51,137 nucleotides of DNA. Origin: Ginglymostoma cirratum (lineage: Eukaryota). Shown here piece after piece: positions 4,458 to 50,511 of this stretch. Location of the stretch: assembly GCA_024137785.1 (NCBI GenBank), contig JAHRHZ010000282.1, positions 496,001 to 547,137 of the forward strand, in the 5' to 3' direction. The notes beneath the pieces are model-generated. The model did no database searches, was not told where the DNA came from, and saw nothing but the letters and a program-made list of their open reading frames with translations. Both the position numbers and the translations under genes were made by a program. Numbering within the stretch: the first letter of the stretch is position 1; each line of letters begins with the position of its first letter.

Positions 4458-4974
4458 ATGGGGAAATGTCTCTCACAGTATCTCATCATTGTATCCATTC
4501 TCAGTAATTATCTCCTCAGAAAATAAATAAGTGTTACAATACAAATGTTATTGCTGTTTGATATGATAGGGACGATCATTTTGATCAATATAGGGCTGAC
4601 GTTCATTGAAATTTCTTTTTACCTTACACACGTCAGAATGGAACCAGATACATTAGGACAGCCGTTTGCTGAAATGACGTTTGAAGAGGGAAGGATATCA
4701 TGCTAAACTGCAAGTTGAAGACAATCAGGTCTAACCTTTATGCACACTGGTACGCTAAATATCTTGGCAACCGCCACCATACATGTTTTGGCTTATTAGG
4801 AGTGGTGTGGGCAAGAATAATTGCATCAGTGGTCCATTTTCTTCTGTGATTGATGAAACTATCAATATCACCAAACTAATAATCATCAATATTCTCATTT
4901 CTGACAGCACTGTGTATTTCTATGCTATGGAGCCCAGTTTGCTGCAAAGATATTGCGGATCCTGTGCAAAAACT
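4458..4974 (+). pseudogene. TCR alpha/delta-type V pseudogene (leader + V exon + degenerate RSS)
   Basis: Putative leader 4458-4503 (MGKCLSQYLIIVSIL, phase-1 GT). V exon from ~4637: DTLGQP..EG/DIMLNCKLKTIRSNLYAHWYAKY/..FSSVIDETINITKLIIINILISDSTVYFYAMEP, with frameshifts and Cys104 changed to Tyr. Nonamer GCAAAAACT at 4966-4974; heptamer decayed. Confidence 0.8.
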
Positions 4975-6559: not shown

Positions 6560-6880
6560 TCTTAATTTTGGTTGCTATTAATTCGATTCTGCGATGATTA
6601 GTTTGAGTTCTACCGATTATCCACATTATTAACAAAATACATGCTCATTGACACAAATCAGATTGACTTCACAGTAGTAATTCCACCCTTGATGCTTATA
6701 TCTGAATTTTACAACGCAATTTCTGACAGCTGGATTGTGTTAACAGTGAAAGTAGAAGACCCTTCCCAGCTATCCAAGGATACTTTAAACCTTCCGTTAA
6801 TTCTTCCATCCCTGAATGTGAAGACTTGGGAACTTCACTATATCAGAGTGCAAAGTTGTTAGAAGCAAAATTAAGCTTGT
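6560..6880 (+). pseudogene. Decayed V relic
   Basis: TCSLTQIRLTSQ** (TAG TAA at the WY position), then ..VEDPSQLSKDTLNLPLILPSLN/EDLGT. Heptamer-like CAAAGTT at ~6851; no nonamer. Confidence 0.4.
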
Positions 6881-9143: not shown

Positions 9144-9619
9144 TTGCTTCCTACGGCCCTCACCGATGATACGTGTCTTGTTGCCTTGTATTGTGAGTTT
9201 GTTTTTAAAAAGTTTTTGCACGTTCCAGGTGTTGAATTTATTGCTCATCATTTGAGACATTTCGTACCTGGATTACAGGACGAATTGTAAAGCTTTTAAT
9301 TCACAAGATGAATTTAAATTACCAATTCAGAGAGAGAGATGGCATAAATCTGGATTCCGTCATTCGACAATGTCCTCGACAACACACTCTTTCTGTACAC
9401 CCGGTATCACTGGGAATCTCCAAGATATTTATTGTAGATGCATAGCAAGGGGAATGAACAGAAGTCTTCAGTTTTAGAAGGAAGGTGCTCTGATAATTTA
9501 TCCAAATTTTTAAAGAAGGTACTTTCAATAGCGCCGGAGTTCTGCCCTACAGTGCCGTACATCTCTGTGCTGTGCAGCCCAAAACTCTGCAGAGATGCAG
9601 AGAAGCCTGTAGAAAAGCT
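9144..9619 (+). pseudogene. TCR alpha/delta-type V pseudogene
   Basis: Leader 9144-9192 (TTG in place of ATG, phase-1 gtgagt). Acceptor gattacag ends at 9278. ERDGINLD../TLFLYTRYHWESPRYLL*MHSKGNEQKSSVLEGRCS../YSAVHLCAVQP. Decayed RSS ending cctgt AGAAAAGCT (9611-9619). Confidence 0.75.
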
Positions 9620-15179: not shown

Positions 15180-15957
15180 TGTTTAGGTTCTTTTTCGGAG
15201 ACCCTCACGGATTTGATGAAATAACAAGACACTGACCTGTTTAGAAAAACACAAATCCTTTATTACAAAGCAAGTACAAGCTGTGGAGGATAACTACTCA
15301 ACCCGGCACAGAGTGCAGAGTCTCGTAAGCGATTCGCCCCGAGCAGCGGAGAGTCCCCACTTTTTATACCTTATCGAGTGCATAATACATTAAGCAATTT
15401 TACATCTCACAATGGCATGTTACATGACACAATCACGACATCGGACAATGACATGATACACAAACAATTACTACATCGAAAACATAAAGAGAGCAGGATA
15501 CAGTATCGATCAAAGTGGCTGCTAACGGCAGGAGGCGATTTCAAGTTGCCAAAATGACAGAATGTAGTTTCAAGCCGCCGAAGTGTCTGGCTTCAACAAA
15601 AGTCAGTGCCCTGGCCCTTTCAGCAGAAACAGAAGTTACATTCATTATAGGATTTCAGAAGTCTCACACCTTTACAAACGCTGCCCACCTAATCTTATTT
15701 GAGACAGTTTCCACATACCCCTGTGCAGAAAGATAAAGATTTACAAAGTTTATACCTAATTCTATTCAGGTAGGAAGCTTAAGGCGGTGTTTTTCTACCT
15801 ACGTGTAAGAAGATAAGGATTTACAAAGTTTTACACCTAATTCTAGTCGGGCAGGAAGTTTTAAGGCAGTGCCTGTATACCTCTGTGTAAGCAGATAAAC
15901 AGCATTAATTTATAGGGAATATAGAAATCAATGGGATGTTATCCCAATAACATCTCA
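15180..15957 (-). mobile_element. Solo LTR (retrovirus-like), copy A
   Basis: On minus it reads TGAGATGTTATTGGG...AACCTAAACA, with TATA (ggtataaaaag), AATAAA and internal tandem U3 repeats. TSD tgtc/tgtt (4 bp, one mismatch). Highly similar to 20185-20970. Confidence 0.9.
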
Positions 15958-16140
15958 TGTTATGTGCAACTGCTTATTTTAGATACTGAGCTGAGGTCTA
16001 ATGACTAAATAAAAACATTTCATTCTCTTGGCGTCCATGATCTAAATTGATCTGTACATTTCTGTGCCTACTCAATTTGTAACGTTAGTTTATTAGAATG
16101 TTTTAATAGTTCTGATTTGGAGTCACTTAAGTATTTCAAG

Positions 16141-16425
16141 CGAGTTATATCAAATCTGTTTGAAGACAGTATACACAAAATACAAGAGTATCCGAGGGGA
16201 AGACCATCTCATGCAAATTTTGTGGCAAGTGAAACTGCAGATCTCTTATTTATTGCTGGTAAACTGTACATGCAGGAAAAGAGTCCAGATGTTTCTGCCT
16301 GATTAATGGTATTAGATGTTGTAATACTTCACAAATGGCATGATGCAGTGCAAATAGAGTTATCGTTAAGTGACTTCATACACGATAATGCCTTAGAGTG
16401 AAAGCATCAATATACCTGTAATGGA
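16141..16425 (+). pseudogene. Decayed TCR-like V relic
   Basis: One frame reads VSEGKTISCKFCGK*NCRSLIYCW*TVHAGKESRCFCLINGI...CSANRVIVK*LHTR*CLRVKASIYL*, preserving V-domain C/W/YxC spacing. Preceded by EDSI and an AG acceptor. RSS lost. Confidence 0.5.
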
Positions 16426-16751
16426 AACATGATTAATATAATATCAAATATCACATGCTCTGGGATTGTACTAACCGAGAACGTGCCTTACGTACTGTGA
16501 GCAGTGACAGTTATAATTGAGTATTTAAAGCGGTCTGGCCGCGTGTAGCAACAACTAACAAACTGCATAGTGCAATATGAATGCAAACGCTTTGAATTGT
16601 GGAGATTAACCATTTGTTTAATCAGAAAATAGACACGTATTGTGCAGGAGGGGCCAATGTTTTACTCTTGGATGGACGTGCCAAATAATTATAAAGCATG
16701 ACTACAACAGCGCATAATTTAAAAACACATAGTCGAGGTAATGCCGAATCA

Positions 16752-16850
16752 TAGATAACACAGTGTGGTGCTGAATGAACACAGCCAGCCAGGCAGTATC
16801 AGAGAAGCAGGAGAGCTGACGTTTCAGGTGGGGACCCGTCTTCGGAACAA
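16752..16850 (-). mobile_element. Penelope-derived HHR mini-element fragment
   Basis: gataacacagtgtggtgctgaatgaacacagcc..gctgacgtttcaggtgggaccc, the same terminal sequence as 6110 and 30911. Confidence 0.7.
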
Positions 16851-17622
16851 ACAGTACATATAAAAGTGTTTAAGTTTCTTTTTAACTCCAAGTTGAGACG
16901 TGAAACTTTTGGTCTGGATAAAATAAGTCAATTAAAATACGAGATAAATTTCTTTTTTTTCCCCAGAGTCGAAAGCATCACAGGCTTTTCATGATATTGA
17001 TAAGGCCTTTGAAGCAATCTATTGGAACAAGCGGCACTAAGTTGAGCATTATTTTTTATTGCAAAGACATTTGAACAAGTTGCTCTTCAAAACCGGATTA
17101 ATCAATGTTTCCATGAAGTGGTTGCAGTCAGTTTTTTTGTGCAATAAGTTTGGTCTTGCTAGTGTGACGTGGAATCTGCCATGTCTGTGTGACCTACTGT
17201 ACCCCAGAAGTTCCCCTTTTTCCCTTATCCTGTTGCTATACCTCAGTGTCTGACGTTTTGCTCAACTCCAATCCATCCAATTTATTCTTTCATTCAACAT
17301 TAACTCGAAGCCTGGGAAGAGGGCTTATTATTCAGTGCATGTATCTATAGTAGAAATGTTTACATACAATAGAGTTGAATAGTTTGTACCTGTAATATTT
17401 AAACTTCGCTGAAATCACTGTTCATCATTTTCGCAATTCTTGCTTCATTTCTGTGTTACTACAAGTGACAACTCCGTACGTTAGAGGCCTGGAGTAAATA
17501 AGTACTGAAGTACAACTTATTTTAAATTCAAGACATTGACGAGGACAGGAGAGTTTAAATAAGGTTGAACGTTAAATATTTTATCAGTTGCATTTATATG
17601 CCTGGTAGTTATTGCTAAATTT

Positions 17623-19400
17623 TGTTATGGGTTAGGCCAGACCCACGTCAACATATTTTAAGATGGTAGCCCAGACCATCACTTTTTTTTTTTTAATTTT
17701 AAGCATAAACTGTCCGCTCCAGGTGAAATGCGACTGATCAAACTACTCGACCTTAAGCAAAAAAAAAAAAATTGCTTTAACACTGTAGTTAAAATACAAC
17801 CAATGAAAGGAAATTAGAATAACTAAACTCCACTGGAAAACTTAAAAGAATACTGCTGTGTTTGGTTCACTCACCGAGATGGTTCATTAGTTTGCGAACA
17901 TTTCATTACCCTTCTGGGTAAAATCATCAGTGCAGCCTCCGATGAAACGTTATTGTATTTTCCCTGTTGCTATTTAATCTCTGGGTCTGTTGGAGTTGAT
18001 TACCTCATTTCCAGATTTTCTTTGCAGTAGTGTGCATATAGAGTCTAATTCTATGTGTTTATTGATTGCCTTCATGGTGGAGAAACATTCTCTAAAAATT
18101 CCCGTACTTGTCTCTGTTTAGCTTGCCCTAGGATTCTGACGCTGTCCCAAACCAACTGGTGGTCCTCCTTGTTTGTATGTATGGAGACAAGAGAGTAGTG
18201 GTAGCGTCTTGTTGTTACTAATTGGTGTTCATGTATTTTCGTAGCCAGTTTTCTTACTGCCTGCCCAAAGTAATGTTTGCTGCAGTCCGAGCATGGGATG
18301 TTGTCTTTAACTTTGGTTCTGTCCATAGTAGGTAAGGGGTCTTTGGTTCTTGTTAGCAGTTGGAGCAGGATTGATATAAGTTTGTGTGCCACTCTGATGC
18401 CCAGTGGCCGTTGGAATCTTGTGGTCAGTTCAGATATGTTCATGATGCATGGTAACGCGACAAGTGTGTCGGGGCATACTCTATCTTCCTGTTGTTGTTT
18501 TTGAGACAGGCATTGTCGGACCCAGCTGTTTGCCTATCTGTTGTCGTTAAATGCTTGGTGGAGGCATTCTTCTTCATCTTGGCGTAGTTCTGGGTTACTG
18601 CGTTATGGCTTGTTTGAATAGTGTTTTCAATCAACTCTGTTTGTGAGTGTTGGGGTGTTTAGTGTTGAAATCTAGGACTTGATCAGTTTGTGTGGCCCTT
18701 CTGTATACCTTGGAAAGAAATTCCCCGTTCGCCCTGCGTTCTCCGATCGCGTTAAAGAGTGGGAGCTGTTTGTTCTTTTCTTCTCCTCTGGTGAATGTGA
18801 TGGTGGTTAAAGTGCTGTTTATAAGTAGATGTGTTTCTTCAGGTTAAGTTTGTTTGATGCTGATGGAAGTGTAGTTCACATACTGGAGCCATAGTTGGGG
18901 TTGTATCTATGGAATGGAAATGCTTTCAAATCTCTGCTTCTCTGCTTCTGCTATTAGTCTAGAAATGGTTGACCGCACCGGTTTCCCGTTTATTTGTTCA
19001 TAGATCTGGCCAATTTCAAATCCAACGGACCTCAGAGTTTAAATAGCAAGCAGGAAAATACCACAGCTCTTCATCGGAGGCTGCACTGATGCTATTACCC
19101 AGAAGGGTAATGAAACAAATACAAACTAATGGAGCGGCTCAGTGAGCGAACCAACCACAGCATCCATAAACCGAGATACAAATCTATTCAATAATATTAA
19201 CAGAATAATTACATAATTGCTCTAATATAGTAACATCCACAAAAAGACTTCTTGGTAAAAAGGCAATGTCAGGCAAATATTTTCACAGACAATTATCCAA
19301 TCAAAGAGAAAAACATCGAAAGAAAATTTAGGGAAAGTATCAGCCAAGAGCTGTTCACTGAAGCTTCCAACTGTTTTGAGACCCCAATAGCTTCTGCATT
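17623..19400 (-). mobile_element. Partial Gypsy-type LTR split by a Penelope insertion
   Basis: 17623-17852 plus 19197-19400 are colinear with the LTR at 36924-37562 (tgttatgg..agacc..; ..aagcttccaactgttttgagacc). Confidence 0.7.
17853..19196 (-). mobile_element. Penelope-like retroelement (RT C-terminus + GIY-YIG) with inverted pseudo-LTRs
   Basis: ORFs 18072-18634 give IPCSDCSKHYFGQAVRKLATKIHEH (GIY-YIG). Inverted termini at 17853-17947 and 19070-19165. HHR CTGATGA-tt-ttaccc agaa gggtaa-t-GAAA (17896-17930, minus). TSD-like ttaaaagaata / ttaacagaata. Confidence 0.9.
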
Positions 19401-19404
19401 CAGT

Positions 19405-22058
19405 TGAACTAGAAACTAGTTTTTTTTCTAGGAAATAGGAATCTGAAATTCGGATGTTTGCATTGGTGTTGTTACTAATGGTCGGTGACCCCTTCAAAAG
19501 CAACATATAGCGGTCCCTATCAGATTGAGAAGAAGCTGTGTCAGGTCAAATATCTGGTAAAGATGCGAGGTAGGAAGAAAACTTTATCGGGTCTGTCACG
19601 TGAATATGTTGAAACCCTATTAATACAGGGACAGGAAAACGGAGAAGCAGTTATTAGTTACTGCCTCTCACAGTGGGGAATGAGAATCTGAATCATTTGA
19701 TTTTGATGCGAACCAAAGTAAGTTAAATAATGAAAAAGTCCTTTGAGAACGGGATAGGATAATAAGATATCTGTCTCAGAAACAGGGAACTGAACTGAAA
19801 GGCCTGTTGGAGCAATATGAGTCCACAGGTGGGAATAGAATGGGAAAGACTAATACTATAATGCATGACGTTGAAATCGGGAACGTAGCTTCGACAAAAC
19901 AACATCCCTGCAAGCTCAATCCACTTAAAGCTACATAGATACAGAAAGAAGTGGAAGCGATGCTGCAAGAAGACGTCATTGAGTCGAGTCAAAGTCAGTG
20001 GAGTTCGCTGATCATGTTGGATCCGAAGCCTGATGTCTCTCAATGGTTCTGTGTTGATTATCAGAAGGTCAATGACGTAACTAAATCGGACTCATACCCA
20101 ATTCCAAGACTGGAAGACTTGTGGAAAATGTTGGACAAGCCACTTAAATGAAAAAGTTGGACTTGATCCGCGGTTGCTAGCAAGTGAAATGTTATTGGGA
20201 TAACATCCCATTGATTTCTATATTCCCTATAAATTAATGCTCTTTCTCTGCTAACACAGAGGTATGCAGGCATTGCCTTAAAACTTCCTGCCCAACTAGA
20301 ATTAAGTGTAAAACTTTGTAAATCCTTATCTTCCTATACTTAAGTGGAAAAGAAAATGCCTTAAGCTTCCTGCCTGAATAGAATTAGGTATAAACTTTGT
20401 AAATCTTTATTTTCCTGCACAGGGGTATGTGGAAACTGTCTCAGATAAGATTAGGTGGCAACGTTTGTAAAGGTGTGAGACTTCTGAAATCCTATAAAGA
20501 ATGTAACTTCTGTTTCTGCTAAAGGGGCCAGGGCAGTGATCTTTGTTCAAGCCAGACACTTCGGAAGCTTGAAATTACAAACTGTCACTTTGGCAACTTG
20601 AAATCGCCTCCTGCCGTTAGCAGTCACTTTGCGAACAATCGATACTGTATCCTGCTTTCTTTATGTTTTAGATGCAGTAATTGTTTGTGTTATCATGTCA
20701 TTGTCCGATGGAGTGATTGTGTCATGTAACATGCCATTGTGAGATGTAAAATTGCTTTCTGTACTATGCACTCGATAAGGTATAAAAAGTGGGGACTGTC
20801 CGCTGCTTGGGGAAAATCACTTACAAGACTCTACACTCTGTGCCGGGTTGAGTACAGTGATCCTCCACAGCTCGTACTTGCTTTGGAATAAAGGATTTAA
20901 GATTTCCTAAACAGGTCAGTGTCTTGTTGTTACATCAAGTCCGTGAGGGTCTCCAAAAACGAACCTAACACAAGTACTTTTGTTGGAGAGATAGAGAGAG
21001 ACAGAAGTTTCTGCATTTGTTACTCCAATGGGCTGTATCAACTTAAACAATGCCCTTTGGTATGAAGAACGCACCAGCCACATTTCAAAGACTTGTGAAG
21101 CGAGTTGTGGCAGAATTGACTGATTGTGCTGTCTATATAGATGACGTCGTGATCTTTAGCCATTCATGGAAAGAGCACACACTGTACTTGGAAGCGCTCT
21201 TTGAAAGATGACAGGAGGTAAAACTTATAAACTTAGGAAAAACTGAGTTCGCAAAGGCAGAAGTGATGTTCTTGGGACATAACATCGAAAATGGATGGAT
21301 GACTCGAGGAACACAAATACGAAGGCCATCGAGGAATTTCCAAGCCCATACACGAAGAAAGAGGTGCTTCGATTTTTGGAACTGAACGGACTCTACTGGA
21401 AGTTTCTGCTGACCTTTCTTAACATGGTGGCACCGCTGACGGATTTGCTAAAGAAGAATTCGAAATTTTGGTGGACAGGACAATGCCAGGAGGCATTTGA
21501 GAATTTAAAAGCTGTATTAACCACCGCACCAGATTTCTCTAAAACCTTTAAAGTCGTTATTGCAGCTAGTGATAAAGGTGTTGAAGCTGTGCTAATGCAG
21601 GAGGATGATGTCGAAACTGAAAGGCAAATTCGAGACTTTTCAAAGAAACTCAATATTCATCAGATCAAATGCTCCACCTTTGAAATGGAATTATTGAGTT
21701 TGGTATTGGCTCTACAACATTTTAATGTCTCTGCTACGAACAATGTTTTGGAGCCCGATGTGTATACAGACCGGAACCCTCCCAGCTTTTTGTAAACATT
21801 TAAGGACAAAAATATGAGAGCATTTCATTGGAGGCTCATGCTACAGCCTTCTAACTCGATTGTACATGTTTTAGATCGTAGACATGCTGTTGCAGGTGTG
21901 GTATCATGATTTTAGTAAAATGTGTCGATAAATTAGTATGAAAAGGTATAACATTAATGTACTGAACTATGTGTTTCATGATAATAGTGTTAATATTCAA
22001 AAATAAATGAAGCCATCTTTTCATAACGATAGTTAATTTTCTTTCCTGAGGGGGGAGG
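19405..22058 (+). mobile_element. Gypsy/Gmr1-type LTR retrotransposon pol remnant (IN-RT-RNaseH order)
   Basis: Integrase C-terminus SGPYQIEKK...CHVNMLKPY (19500-19620) precedes RT (FCVDYQKVN..SYPIPR, MPFGMKNAPATFQ, AVYIDD at ~21130) and RNase H (ASDKGVEAVL..ELLSLVLALQHF..YTDRNP). PPT gaggggggagg at 22048-22058. Confidence 0.9.
20185..20970 (+). mobile_element. Solo LTR (retrovirus-like), copy B, inserted in the Gmr1 RT
   Basis: TGAAATGTTATTGGG...GAACCTAACA with perfect 4-bp TSD caag (20181-20184 and 20971-20974). Interrupts the DLxRGxxQV motif. Has TATA and AATAAA. Confidence 0.92.
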
Positions 22059-22625: not shown

Positions 22626-23111
22626 AGTTATTGTTCGAAGTTTTCTCTCACTATCATCAATGTGAGACTCATTGCACAGTAATAGACGGCGGTGTCAAAT
22701 AGCAGCACCCTGAAATGTTCGATTGGTACAAATTGTCTGACTGTTGGATTGTATCAGAAAACCGGACCTAAGCAAAGTCCGCTTTCAATTAATCACCACC
22801 GCTCTTGAACCTCCAGACTGCGAACTCAGGCCGTCTGCCTGCGGACTGACGGTAATAAAAGAAGTAATCAGCATCATCAGTGTCGGTGCAGTTTAAAGAG
22901 ACATCTTCTCCCTCTGTCTGTGTGAGCGAGGGTTCCTGCAGAGCAACGGATCCCCCATTGCTCAGATCTGTAACACAGGTTAGAGAAAACGGCAATCAGC
23001 GATGAAATGTTTGAGTGAAACAAACAAAATTTGAAAATTCACGGTATTACCTAAAGAAAGGATAGAAATTAGAGCAGAAAATCTCATGCAGAACGTTAGG
23101 CATATGTCCAT
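22626..23111 (-). pseudogene. TCR alpha/delta V pseudogene with near-intact 23-RSS
   Basis: Leader 23111-23051 (MDICLTFCMRFSALISILSL, gtaat donor). V exon 22967-22665: GSVALQEPSLTQTEGEDVSLNCT..YFFYYRQSAGRRPEF..*..*VRFS../DTAVYYCAMS, two stops and a frameshift. RSS CACATTG-23-ACAATAACT. Confidence 0.93.
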
Positions 23112-24568: not shown

Positions 24569-24607
24569 TGTTCTTGTACGAGGCTCCCTCTGGTCTCTGT
24601 CACTGTG
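24569..24607 (-). other. 23-bp spacer recombination signal sequence
   Basis: CACAGTG (24607-24601), acagagaccagagggagcctcgt (23 nt), ACAAGAACA (24577-24569). Confidence 0.95.
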
Positions 24608-25126
24608 TCTTTCACTCCGCAGTAATACACGGCATTGTCAGACAGTCGCAGATCACGGATGGTGAAATTCCCTTCACTTTTCACATCGTCGAAATTAGCA
24701 GAAAATCGAGGCCCCACACCTTTAGCTCTGATAGCATCGCCATAGTTAGGGATGTAGATCAAGAATGTTAGGGTTTTGTCGTGATCCTGACGATATAGTT
24801 GCAAAGAATATGTACTAGCAGTGGTCGAATAATTGTAACTAATGGTCACCAATTCATCTTCAAATTTCATCGCTGAAAACGGCTCCTGGGAGATCGAGTC
24901 TGCACCACCAACACCTGCAGAAATGTATGAATACAGAACATCAATATATTATCCGTATGCTATGGTATGTAACATTATCTGGTAACTGAATACTTTCAAA
25001 ACAGAGAGAAAGTGCATTTAAAACAATATCAGTAATGCCTGTAAGTGGAAGAGTGTGTATATTTTAAGATGAATTACCAGTTATGAGAGCTGCGGTAGTG
25101 AAGAAATAGTATAGAGTAACCGACAT
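24608..25126 (-). CDS. TCR alpha/delta-type V gene segment, open frame, non-canonical (leader 25126-25078, V exon 24914-24608)
   Basis: MSVTLYYFFTTAALIT/GVGGADSISQEPFSAMKFEDELVTISYNYSTTASTYSLQLYRQDHDKTLTFLIYIPNYGDAIRAKGVGPRFSANFDDVKSEGNFTIRDLRLSDNAVYYCGVK. GT-AG phase-1 intron, no stops. Cys23 is Tyr and Trp41 is Leu. Confidence 0.9.
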
Positions 25127-30871: not shown

Positions 30872-33800
30872 TCGCTTCAGAGATAATAGAAACTGCAGCT
30901 GCTGGAGAATCTGAGATAACAAGGTGTAGAGCTGGATGAACACAACAGGCCAAGCAACATCAGAGGAGCAGGAAAGCTGACGTTTCGGGCCTAGACCCTT
31001 CTTCAGAAATGGCGGAGGGGAAGGGGGTTCTGAAATAAATAGGGAGAGAGGGGAAGCGTAGAGAAGATGGATAGAGGAGAAGATAGGTGGAGAGGAGACA
31101 GACAGGTCAAAGAGGTGGGGATCAGGTCAATAAAGGTGAGTGCACTTGGGGAGTTAGGGAGGAGATAGGTCAGTCCAGGGAGAATGAACAGGTCAAGGGG
31201 GCGGGATGAGGTTAGTAGGCAGGAGTTGGAGGTGGGGCTTGAGGTGGGAGGAGGGAATAGGTTGGGAGGAAGGATAGGTTAGGGAGGCGGGGACGAGCTG
31301 GGATGATTTTGGGATGCGGTAAAGGGAGGGAAGATTTTGAAACTTGTGAAATCCACAGAGATACCGTTGAGCTGCAGGTTTCCCACGCGGAATATGAGTT
31401 GCTGTTCCTGCAACTTTCGGGTGGCATATTTGTGGAACTGCAGGAGACCCATGATGGACATGTCGTCTGAGGAATGGGAGGGTGAGTTGAAACGTTCGCG
31501 ACTGGGAGGTGCAGTTGTTTAGTGCGAACCGAGCGGAGGTGTCCTGCAAAGCTGTCCCTAAGCCTCCACTTGGTTTCCCCGATGTAGAGGAGGCCACAAC
31601 GGGAACAACGGATACAGTATACCACATTAGCAGATGTGCAGGCGAACATATGCTTAATGTAGAATGTCTTCTTGGGTCCTGGGAAGGGGGGAGGTGTAGG
31701 GGCAGGTGTAGCACTTGCTGCGGTTTCAGGGAAAAGTGCCGGGTATGGTGGGGCTGGAGGGGAGTGTGGGGCGGACAAGGGAGTCACGAAGAGAGTGGTC
31801 CCTCCGGTAAGCAGATAAGGGTGGGGAGGGAAAAATGTCTTTGGTGGTGGGGTCGGATTGCAGATCGCAGAAGTGTCGGAGGATGATGCATTGTATCCGG
31901 AGGTTGGTGGGGTGGTACGTGAGGATGTGGGGGATTCTGTTTTGGTTGTTGTTGCGTGGAGGGGGTGTGAAGGATGAGTTGCGGGAAATGAGGCAGACAC
32001 AGTCGAGGGCTTTCTCGACCACTGAGGGGGGCAAGTTGCGGTCCTTGAAAAACGAGGATATCAGAGATGTACAGGAGTGGAATGCCTCATCCTGGGATCA
32101 GATGCGGCGGAGGCAAAGGAATTTGGAATAGGGGATGGCATTTTTGCAGGAAGGTCCATGGGAAGAGGTGTATCCTCGGTGGCTGTGGGAGTCGTTGGGC
32201 TTGAAATGGATATCGGTTTCGAAGTGGTTGCCAGAGATGCAGACAGAGAGGTCCAGGAAGGAGAGAGAGGTATCAGAGATTGTCCACGTGAACCTAAGGT
32301 TGGGGTGGAAGGTATTGTTGAAGTAGATGAGGGTGTCAGTGAAAGGAGACTGGTCGGGCCTGCGGGACAGGAAGAAGCGGAGAGCCTTTAGGCCATCAGT
32401 ACGGGGAATGCAGGTGTAGAGAGGCTGTACGTCCATGGTGGTGTTGGGGTGCCCAACACCTCATCTTTACCATGGCGTCCAGTCTCTGTACACCTGCATT
32501 CCAGATACAGACGGCCTAAAGACCCTTCGCTTCTTCCTGTCCAGCAGACCCGACCAGTCTTCCTTCACTGACAATCTTATCCACTTAGCCGAACTCGTCC
32601 TCACCTTCAACAACTTCGCTTTCAATTCCTCCCACTTCCTCCAGACAAAGGGGGTGGCCATGGGTGCCCGCATGGGCCCAAGCAATGCCTGCCTCTTTTC
32701 AGGTTACGTGGAACAATCCATCTTCCGTAGCTACACTGGCCCTAAACCCAACCTCTTCCTCCGTTACATTGATGTGCTCCCACGAGGAGCTTGAACAGTT
32801 CATCCACTTCACCAACACCTTCCACCCTAACCTTAAATTCACCTGGATCATGTCTAATACCTCTCTCTCCTTCCTGGACCTCTCTGTCTCCATCTCTGGC
32901 AACCACCTGGAAACCGATATCCCTTTCAAGTCCACCGACTCCCACAACCACCTAGAATACACCTCCTCCCCCACACCTTCCTGCAAAAATGCCATCCCCT
33001 ATTCCCAATTCCTTCGCCTCCACCACATAAGCTCCCAGGATGAAGCATTCCTCTCCCTTACATCTCAGATGTTCTCGTTTTTCAAGGACCACAACTTGTC
33101 CCCCTCAGTGGTCGGGAACAACCTCGAACGTGTCTCCCGCATTTCCCGCAAGTCATGCCTCACACTCACTCCTCGCAATACCAGCCAAAACTGAATCCCC
33201 CTCATACTCACGTGTCACCCGACCAACCTCCGTATCCAACGCATCATCCTCCGACACTTCCGCCATCTGCAATCCGATCCCATCTCCAAAGACATTTTTC
33301 CCTCCCCACCCTGATCTGCTTTCCGGAGGGACTATTCTCTCCGTGACTCCCTTGTCCCCTCCACACTCCCCTCCAACCCCACCACACCCATCACTTATCC
33401 CTACCACCGCAGGAAGTGCTGCACCTGCCCCTACTCCTCCCCCGTCACCCACATCCCAGGCCCCAAAAAGACTTTCCACATCAAACAGATGTTCACCTGC
33501 ACATCTTCTAACATGGTATACTGCATCCGCTGTTCCTGTTGTGGCCTACTCTACATCGGGCAAACCAAGCAGAGGCTTAGAGACAGCTTTGCAGGACACC
33601 TACGCTCGGTTCGCACTAAACAACTGCATCTCCCAGTCGCGAACCATTTCAACTCCTCCTCCAATTCCTCAGACGACATGTCCATCCCGGGCCTCCGGCA
33701 GAGCTACATCGATGCCGCCCAAAAGTTGCAGGAACAGCAACTCATATTCCGCTTGGGAACCCTGCAGGCAAATGGTGTCACTGTGGACTTCACAAGTTTC

Positions 33801-34226
33801 AAAATCTCCCGTTCCCCCTACCGCATCCCAAAATCATCCCAGCTCGTCTCCACCTCCCTAACCTATCCTTCCTCCCACCTATCCCCACCTCCCACCTCAA
33901 GCCCCACCCCCATCTCCTACCTACTAACCTTATCCCGCCCCCTTGACCTGTCCATTCTCCCTGTACTGACCTATCTCCTCCCTACCCCTCCACGTACACT
34001 CACCTTTACTGGCCCCATCCCCACCTCTTTGACCTGCCTGTCTCCTCTCCGCCTATCTTCTCCTCTACCCATCTTCTATCCACCTCCCCTCTCTCCTTAT
34101 TTATTTCAGAACCCCCTTCCCCTCCCCCATTTCTAAAGAAGGGTCTAGGCCCGAAACGTCAGCTTTCCTGCTCCTCTGATGCTGCTTGGCCTGTTGTGTT
34201 CATCCAGCTCTACACCTTGTTATCTC
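30872..34226. mobile_element. Penelope-like element as a head-to-head fold-back palindrome (left arm minus, right arm plus)
   Basis: Both arms encode PLE RT (MDVQ.LYTCIP; QTKGVAMGARMGP; RYID) and GIY-YIG (NVVYCIRCSRCGLLYIGETK). Centre ggtgttggg-gtg-cccaacacc (32440-32460). HHR-bearing 3' ends. 11-bp TSD agagtataaaa at 30861-30871 and 34227-34237. Confidence 0.93.
30979..31006 (-). ncRNA. Minimal type I hammerhead ribozyme (Penelope pLTR)
   Basis: CTGAAGA-A-GGGTC TA GGCCC-GAAA-CGTC: intact core boxes, stem II and a palindromic ACGT stem III. The right-arm copy (34133-34160) has CTAA. Confidence 0.75.
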
Positions 34227-34479
34227 AGAGTATAAAAGCGCAGTATTTTATCTGCAACAATTTCAGGCATAATTGAGACTGCACCTACAAATGTTGCACA
34301 AATTTATTCCCTCACCTGAAAAGGGACATTTTTTTTATTGGTGGACGTTCACGGGATGTTTACTAGATTGATCCCGGACATAATTGGTTTATCTCATGCA
34401 GATATATGTCTTATAACGTTGAAAAGCAATGAAATGCTCCCCGCTTGCGTGAATGATTGCGTTTCCAAAAGCACCCAAG

Positions 34480-38760: not shown

Positions 38761-39194
38761 CCATCCAATCTACTGATAAACCAAAGGGTTCACATGCACA
38801 AAGTCTGGAAAGAGATTCGTTCACTCATCACACCTGGTGACACATCATCGAGTTCACACTGCTGACAGACTTTTTGCGTGGTTTGGTGTAAGTTAGAAAC
38901 TGCTGACAAGTAGCCAAGGCAACACTGATCAGGCATTTCATTCTACAGTGTCTACACATGGGAAAACTAAATCAGATCACGGGAAAACACAGAGTTATCT
39001 GGTATTCATCGGAAAAGAACATAAACCATGGTGATGAATCGAATAGATTAGATTCTTAAGAGCTGCGTGTACTGATAATTGTGAAAGTATGAGAAATAGC
39101 TGAATTAACAGCAGATACAACAGTTTCAAGAGTATGGCAACCTTACTGAGGAACAGAAACTGCGGGGACTAAGGGGATTTTTTTTAAAAGTAGA

Positions 39195-49750: not shown

Positions 49751-50511
49751 AAAACAGGAATAGAATACGTCTTCACCTGCGTTGCCCGGCGAAAAGTATG
49801 AAATGGAACATAGGGAATGAAACAGTTACAGGATAAATTCCATCCACACTTCACCAGCAAGGATTTACAGAAAAAATACAGGTGGGGTAAAATACTGGAA
49901 ATTTTGGTTTAGCAAGATCTGATTACATGCGAAACTGTGAAAAAAAAACGCTCTGTTGTAACGAATTAGAAATATTTAAATTGCACATATTTCATGAATC
50001 TTAGTTACATATCGAAGGATTTTCTGAGCATTGTTTTCAATTCTGCAGTCTGCTGTCTTGTTGTCTCCTCAGACCTTAGATCGAGGAAGTTCTTGAAGAG
50101 GCTCTTAACCTCTTTTTTTCAGCATGTCTCACTGCACAGAAAAACAACGGAGCGACTGACTACCGATTTGTGTTAACAGTGAGCGTGATGGTGCCTTTCT
50201 CACAGTCTACAATTACTTTAAACCATCTTTCAATTCTTTCATCCCGGAATGTGGAGATGAGGAACTCTAGAGCTTGATTGGAGAGCTGTCTGTACAAAAA
50301 CACAAAGCCATTCGGGGTAATAGAAGAGTTGCATTGAAGATAAATGGTTTGTCCAACATTTCCATAATGAATAGAAAGCGGAAATGTTTCTGAGTTATAA
50401 GAAATAGCTGCAAAAAAAACGAACAGAAGTGAAAAAATTCAACATAATGGTTTCTTTAATGCGAATTAAATAAAATTAAATAACGTGTCTTTGAATCCAG
50501 GTTGAAGTTAA

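Follow-up and report, generated by a model that had tools for sequence, protein, structure and literature searches.

Can a TCR V gene that has lost both the first cysteine and the conserved tryptophan of its immunoglobulin fold remain in use, or is such a gene simply a recent pseudogene? This question is raised by a V gene on the minus strand of the nurse shark DNA analysed here, a stretch of 51,137 nucleotides that we call the window. The codons of this gene at IMGT positions 23 and 41 specify Tyr and Leu rather than Cys and Trp. The original prediction proposed that it might belong to a maintained V family that does without the disulfide. To answer the question, the gene was compared with published clones, sequencing runs, paralogues, relatives from a second shark species, and V domains of other vertebrates.

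The V gene and its transcripts

The gene has the following features, all on the minus strand.

25126, minus strand: ATG start codon (sequence)
25078..25126, minus strand: leader exon of 49 nt, MSVTLYYFFTTAALIT, ending in a phase-1 donor (sequence)
24915..25077, minus strand: GT-AG intron of 163 nt (sequence; a contig from run X3 skips 163 nt here)
24608..24914, minus strand: V exon of TCR alpha V10.1, comprising the leader end and then the V region from 24900 (open frame)
24835..24837, minus strand: IMGT 23, Tyr (TAC) at the first Cys position (alignment; cDNA clones)
24796..24798, minus strand: IMGT 41, Leu (CTA) at the conserved Trp position (alignment; cDNA clones)
24664..24672, minus strand: IMGT 87-89, Gly-Asn-Phe, family-specific E-strand residues and candidate compensation (alignment)
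24619..24621, minus strand: IMGT 104, unpaired Cys (TGC) (sequence, alignment)
24569..24607, minus strand: RSS with a 23-nt spacer, CACAGTG-23-ACAAGAACA (sequence)

The leader and the splice sites are present and the V exon is open, much as the original prediction had described them together with the GT-AG intron and the RSS, and the exon scores 40 bits against the Pfam V-set model (PF07686), for which the curated cut-off is 26. The gene had also been called the only intact V. This is true within the window, but not on the contig, which holds open canonical V exons with RSSs (L018, L020, L028 and L030). Its neighbours were correctly described as broken: of the remaining V-like stretches in the window, five in all, each is frameshifted, interrupted by stops or fragmentary.

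About 4682-4935: V-like stretch, frameshifted
6712-6840: V-like fragment
9360-9530: V-like stretch with a stop
22667-22968, minus strand: V-like stretch with stops and a frameshift
50127-50360, minus strand: V-like stretch with a stop

The two relics on the minus strand keep Cys23 and have Leu or Tyr at the Trp41 position, which is probably the result of decay. Elsewhere in the window, a long nested inverted repeat spans positions 30910-34229, and both of its arms, which are 84-94% complementary, contain frames with a GIY-YIG-like motif (VYCIRC..C..LYIG.TK). The arrangement suggests two inverted copies of a Penelope-like retroelement. The arms of a second nested inverted repeat at 15183-20968 total about 730 nt (89-93%) and enclose a degraded GIY-YIG-like frame at 18072-18533. 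A frame of 170 amino acids at 21283-21795 on the plus strand resembles the RT/RNase H part of Gypsy-type LTR retrotransposons. Isolated RSS-like motifs occur at 38988 and 43533 of the plus strand, and no V exon was detected upstream of either.

To examine the core residues, V10.1 was aligned with one paralogue and 13 canonical V exons from the nurse-shark genome. As predicted, Tyr stands in the Cys23 column and Leu in the Trp41 column. Cys104 is the sole cysteine of the mature domain. The loss of the two residues is not a chance feature because V sequences outside the family almost always keep them (Trp41 in 36 of 36 and Cys23 in 34 of 36). Sequencing error was rejected as the source of Tyr23 and Leu41, since the same letters are found in clones and contigs, and misalignment was likewise rejected because the flanking residues Tyr25, Leu39 and Tyr42 are in register. 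It is correct that CTA differs from TGG at three bases. However, this is not a triple hit, because 5 of 15 paralogues have TTG at codon 41, which is one step from TGG, so that the distance reduces to one replacement followed by synonymous drift. With the IMGT criteria for a functional V gene taken as given in PMC8559430, V10.1 has the hydrophobic residue at 89 (Phe89) and the second Cys at 104, and lacks the first Cys at 23 (Tyr) and the conserved Trp at 41 (Leu). Sequence rules alone would file the gene as an ORF despite its expression.

The V gene in the window is nurse-shark TCR alpha V10.1, the same gene as that presented in Ott et al. 2018 (PMC5931798). Supplement 3 of that paper contains 43 rows labelled aV10.1 and two labelled aV10.2, and the unmutated aV10.1 cDNA clones, when compared by eye, are identical to the window V. 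Also by eye, the alpha V10 leader primer MFC378 from the same paper matches the V10.1 leader exon. The window is most likely DNA of the nurse-shark TCR alpha/delta locus, because the clones read the same as V10.1 and the leader primer matches. Part of the published C-alpha primer matches the nurse-shark genome once.

The motifs containing Tyr23 and Leu41 are kept in all 43 aV10.1 rows of Supplement 3, and four heavily hypermutated clones from spiral valve retain positions 23, 41 and 104 (judged by eye). The clones derive from thymus and spiral valve and have many different junction starts. They stop at varied junctions just upstream of the V10.1 RSS, which indicates that this signal is in use. 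The rows end before the J; in the paper itself, 45 clonal-group sequences are reported, 13 of them alpha V10, all in frame and stop-free, with alpha V10 clonal groups of four and nine clones that carry hypermutation. Clone numbers are not a measure of V10 usage here because the primers included one for the V10 leader. A synonymous AAA/AAG variant divides the 43 rows (14 vs 29) and is present in run X3 as well.

A contig from public run X3 lacks precisely the V10.1 intron and is thus spliced, and the single letter by which it differs from V10.1 is synonymous. Its loose end is junction-like and reads in frame to an FG motif, although this end is a two-contig consensus with an agreement of 0.72, which limits its weight, and it does not match the genome when up to one mismatch is allowed. 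The V10.1 contig in run X1 is unrearranged, runs through the RSS and may be DNA. The search for productive transcripts that had been proposed for this V has therefore found V10.1 in rearranged transcripts, among the clones of Supplement 3 and probably in run X3.

Paralogues, bamboo-shark relatives and selection

A search of the nurse-shark genome returned 43 matches, of which 30 were inspected and 15 of these 30 were assigned to the V10.1 family by similarity. The family comprises at least 15 paralogous loci. A Trp41 codon is found in none of the 15, and Cys23 is absent from 14, with residue 23 being Phe in seven loci, Tyr in four, Leu in two, Asn in one and Cys in one. Because the residue loss is family-wide, a recent pseudogene confined to a single gene was rejected as an explanation. 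Two of the 15 loci look fully intact, namely V10.1 (L001) and L002, and 13 are broken; frames, splice sites and RSSs persist in both of the former. Runs X4 and X6 both contain spliced L002 (Phe23 and Leu41), and the X4 sequence reads on in frame into a J segment that is found in the genome 49 kb upstream of C-alpha, with an RSS and a splice donor.

Related sharks had been suggested as a further place to look, and proteins of the bamboo shark Chiloscyllium punctatum, a species of the same order as the nurse shark and of another family, also lack Cys23 and Trp41 (Phe23 and Leu41 in P0001; Phe23 and Val41 in P0021). Five family proteins from the nurse shark and the bamboo shark form one clade with support of 99/93 and have an overall identity of 52-58%. 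Both bamboo-shark proteins retain Cys104, as do L001 and L002. The loss of Cys23 and Trp41 predates the expansion to 15 copies and the split between the two shark families. The DNA tree contrasts a mainly Tyr subgroup of six members with a mainly Phe group of nine, and, as this tree is unrooted, the order of Phe and Tyr at position 23 is one that we infer. The ancestral change of Cys23 may have been to Phe and not to Tyr, because both bamboo-shark proteins and 7 of the 15 paralogues have Phe.

Two of the broken loci have features of their own. L019 (1500-1830, plus strand) belongs to the Tyr subgroup and is decayed, with TGC at codon 23 and no Cys104; it was considered as an intact ancestor that had kept Cys23, and was rejected on account of its position in that subgroup, its heavy decay and its missing Cys104. 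L006 (1500-1830, minus strand; near 391 kb of contig C282 in G000) corresponds by eye to the aV10.2 clone in the published rows. No normal AG acceptor is found at the expected position of this locus, its sequence reads YSC, and its heptamer is CACAGGA; the join in the aV10.2 clone, as given in those rows, removes Cys104.

Protein searches, by word index and by full HMMER, found family members only in C. punctatum. This is no sign of absence in other sharks, because protein annotation rarely includes V segments. Searches of the ESM Atlas gave generic TCR V clusters only, and the family motif was not found in 11 of the 19 supplementary files of PMC10322711, the portion that was covered.

The original prediction also called for an estimate of dN/dS, and the value among paralogues is 0.46 (omega 0.464 in a codon model for five paralogues, with 2ΔlnL of 19.9 over omega = 1), which is a tree-wide average over paralogues, some of them now broken, and not a branch-specific or orthologue-based test. 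Two canonical V sets have omega values of 0.557 and 0.709 under the same codon model. Pairwise dN/dS between L001 and L002 is 0.45 overall and 0.38 in the frameworks, and the overall range for eight canonical V pairs is 0.39-0.62. This constraint acted after both Cys23 and Trp41 were lost. Taken with the transcripts and the second shark family, the dN/dS values support the proposal of a maintained disulfide-less family as opposed to a recent pseudogene.

A proposed repacked core and its alternatives

Our main reading, to which we assign a probability of roughly 0.7, is that V10.1, which is transcribed, spliced and rearranged to J, belongs to an old V family of carpet sharks without Cys23 and Trp41, and that it likely keeps the V fold by means of a repacked, disulfide-less core. 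Gly87-Asn88-Phe89 is invariant in the five family proteins from two shark families, whereas among 36 other V sequences Gly87 is found in none and Phe89 in one. In V domains, residue 87 lies beside residue 23, and residue 89 beside residue 41; the 23/87 and 41/89 contacts considered here are predicted from this general geometry. An aromatic ring at 23 would fill the space of the disulfide, and Gly87 would give room to that ring. Phe89 and Leu41 together may stand in for the indole of Trp, and Cys104 would remain as a small buried hydrophobic residue with a free thiol. The resulting chain would presumably pair with TCR beta and appear at the cell surface in a conventional alpha-beta receptor.

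Summed side-chain volumes at positions 23, 41, 87 and 89 come to 580-630 for the family and 592-693 for 34 canonical V sequences. Core repacking is the likely mechanism because Gly87-Asn88-Phe89 keeps the summed core volume within the canonical range. Such a balance is not obligatory and may be a coincidence, because two teleost proteins that combine Tyr23 with Trp41 have sums of 728-755, above the canonical range. AlphaFold, when given an alignment of 41 rows (36 of them non-family V sequences, 34 of which have both hallmark residues), predicts an all-beta V fold with a pLDDT of 89.8 that matches V domains in the PDB. The model from the five family rows alone has a pLDDT of 48.8, and both models are without the J-encoded G strand. 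Of the two possibilities originally raised for the core, repacking appears to gain indirect support from the family-specific Gly87 and Phe89, but a free cysteine for interchain or ligand bonding is unsupported.

It is also conceivable, though unlikely, that the family is tolerated but marginal, with poor folding that is rescued by the beta and constant domains, and with Gly87 and Phe89 as incidental ancestral residues. The 13 broken loci and the poor family-only AlphaFold model would fit this idea, as would the teleost Tyr23 proteins, which manage without changes of the Gly87/Phe89 type. A natural antibody that is missing one core Cys, as cited in PMC6201861, works as a whole molecule and is unstable as a single-chain fragment. 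However, a marginal fold is difficult to reconcile with the conservation of Gly87-Asn88-Phe89 in five of five proteins across two shark families at 52-58% identity, and with omega values as low as those of canonical sets.

If V10.1 were instead a transcribed passenger, it would be rearranged and spliced while its protein went unused, and purifying selection would be a thing of the past. In-frame transcripts can ride along with a second alpha chain, an in-frame bias can come from decay of out-of-frame mRNA or from a second alpha allele, and the selection test is not specific to terminal branches. Even so, we consider this quite improbable. The residues were lost before the 15 copies arose and the two shark families split, with selection continuing afterwards, and frames, splice sites and RSSs are intact in L001 and L002. 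Furthermore, the hypermutated alpha V10 clones fall into groups of four and nine in PMC5931798, and the sole difference in X3 is synonymous. A use for the free thiol of Cys104, be it in bonding to another chain or to CDR3 or in capturing a ligand covalently, might be read into the retention of this partnerless residue in L001, L002 and both bamboo-shark proteins. Position 104 faces the core in V domains, though, and the AlphaFold model has Cys104 mid-strand in its usual place. The mature V regions of L001 and L002 contain no second Cys, and the teleost Tyr23 proteins retain Cys104 too, as would be expected from packing alone. We regard such a use as very improbable.

An expressed V10.1 with a repacked core thus remains our preferred reading, and it can be extended. 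In the extended form, carpet sharks rebuilt the V core with Phe or Tyr at 23, Leu41, Gly87 and Phe89 to give a fully stable, disulfide-independent TCR alpha that is peripherally selected and that arose independently of the loss in teleosts. This proposal is tentative, and we give it somewhat less than an even chance of being correct. If the domain is stable, a TCR V region can work without the disulfide and without the Trp that packs on it. The changes at 23, 41, 87 and 89 would then amount to a four-residue recipe, which is of interest for antibody fragments that fold in the reducing cytoplasm, and, if true, to a natural blueprint for redox-independent V domains.

Comparison with known receptor and antibody domains

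Loss of a core cysteine in a variable domain has precedents. Natural antibody VH domains without the disulfide, such as that of ABPC48, carry Tyr in place of one core Cys and still function, according to older work cited in PMC6201861. Unlike the V10.1 family, each of these examples is an individual antibody and not a germline family of long standing. The cysteine they lack is the second one, and Trp41 is reportedly retained in them.

Salmonid TRAV1, as described in Edholm et al. 2021 (PMC8559430), has a consistent Cys23Tyr replacement, undergoes productive rearrangement and is common to several species, and the authors there report no further structural peculiarity. To this extent, TRAV1 of salmonids and other teleosts is like V10.1 in being a TCR alpha V with an aromatic residue at 23 that keeps Cys104 and is productively rearranged. 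Unlike V10.1, two teleost Tyr23 proteins, which may be members of TRAV1, retain Trp41 and Leu89. The two proteins cluster with a Cys23-containing teleost V (100/98), apart from the shark family. An AU test on a 96-column alignment, from which columns 23 and 41 had been removed, modestly rejects a clade of teleost Tyr23 and shark proteins (p = 0.036). These trees modestly favour a loss of Cys23 in sharks that was independent of the loss in teleosts. A motif scan identified 14 proteins outside the shark family that have Tyr or Phe at 23 together with Trp41, including P0163 and P0101; two of the 14 are known to be teleost. The teleost family without Cys23 appears to be widespread.

The main text of PMC5931798 uses 'cysteine' twice, for B2M primers, and 'tryptophan' or 'disulfide' never, and the residue loss goes unremarked there. 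Text look-ups in PMC5931798, PMC12227049 and PMC6795676 gave no remark on the loss of Cys23 or Trp41, and our literature search at the level of titles and opening lines of abstracts, with incomplete coverage of the central shark TCR papers, found no description of this loss in shark alpha V10. V-gene numbering and the assignment of functional status both rely on Cys23, Trp41 and Cys104, so that rule-based annotation would demote the expressed V10 family.

The alpha V10.1 gene and the loss of Cys23 to Tyr in a salmonid TCR V are already known. What appears to be new is the additional loss of Trp41 in a maintained, expressed family with fixed neighbouring changes. Together with the teleost case, the shark family suggests that the disulfide has been lost repeatedly and independently in the TCR alpha V genes of fish.
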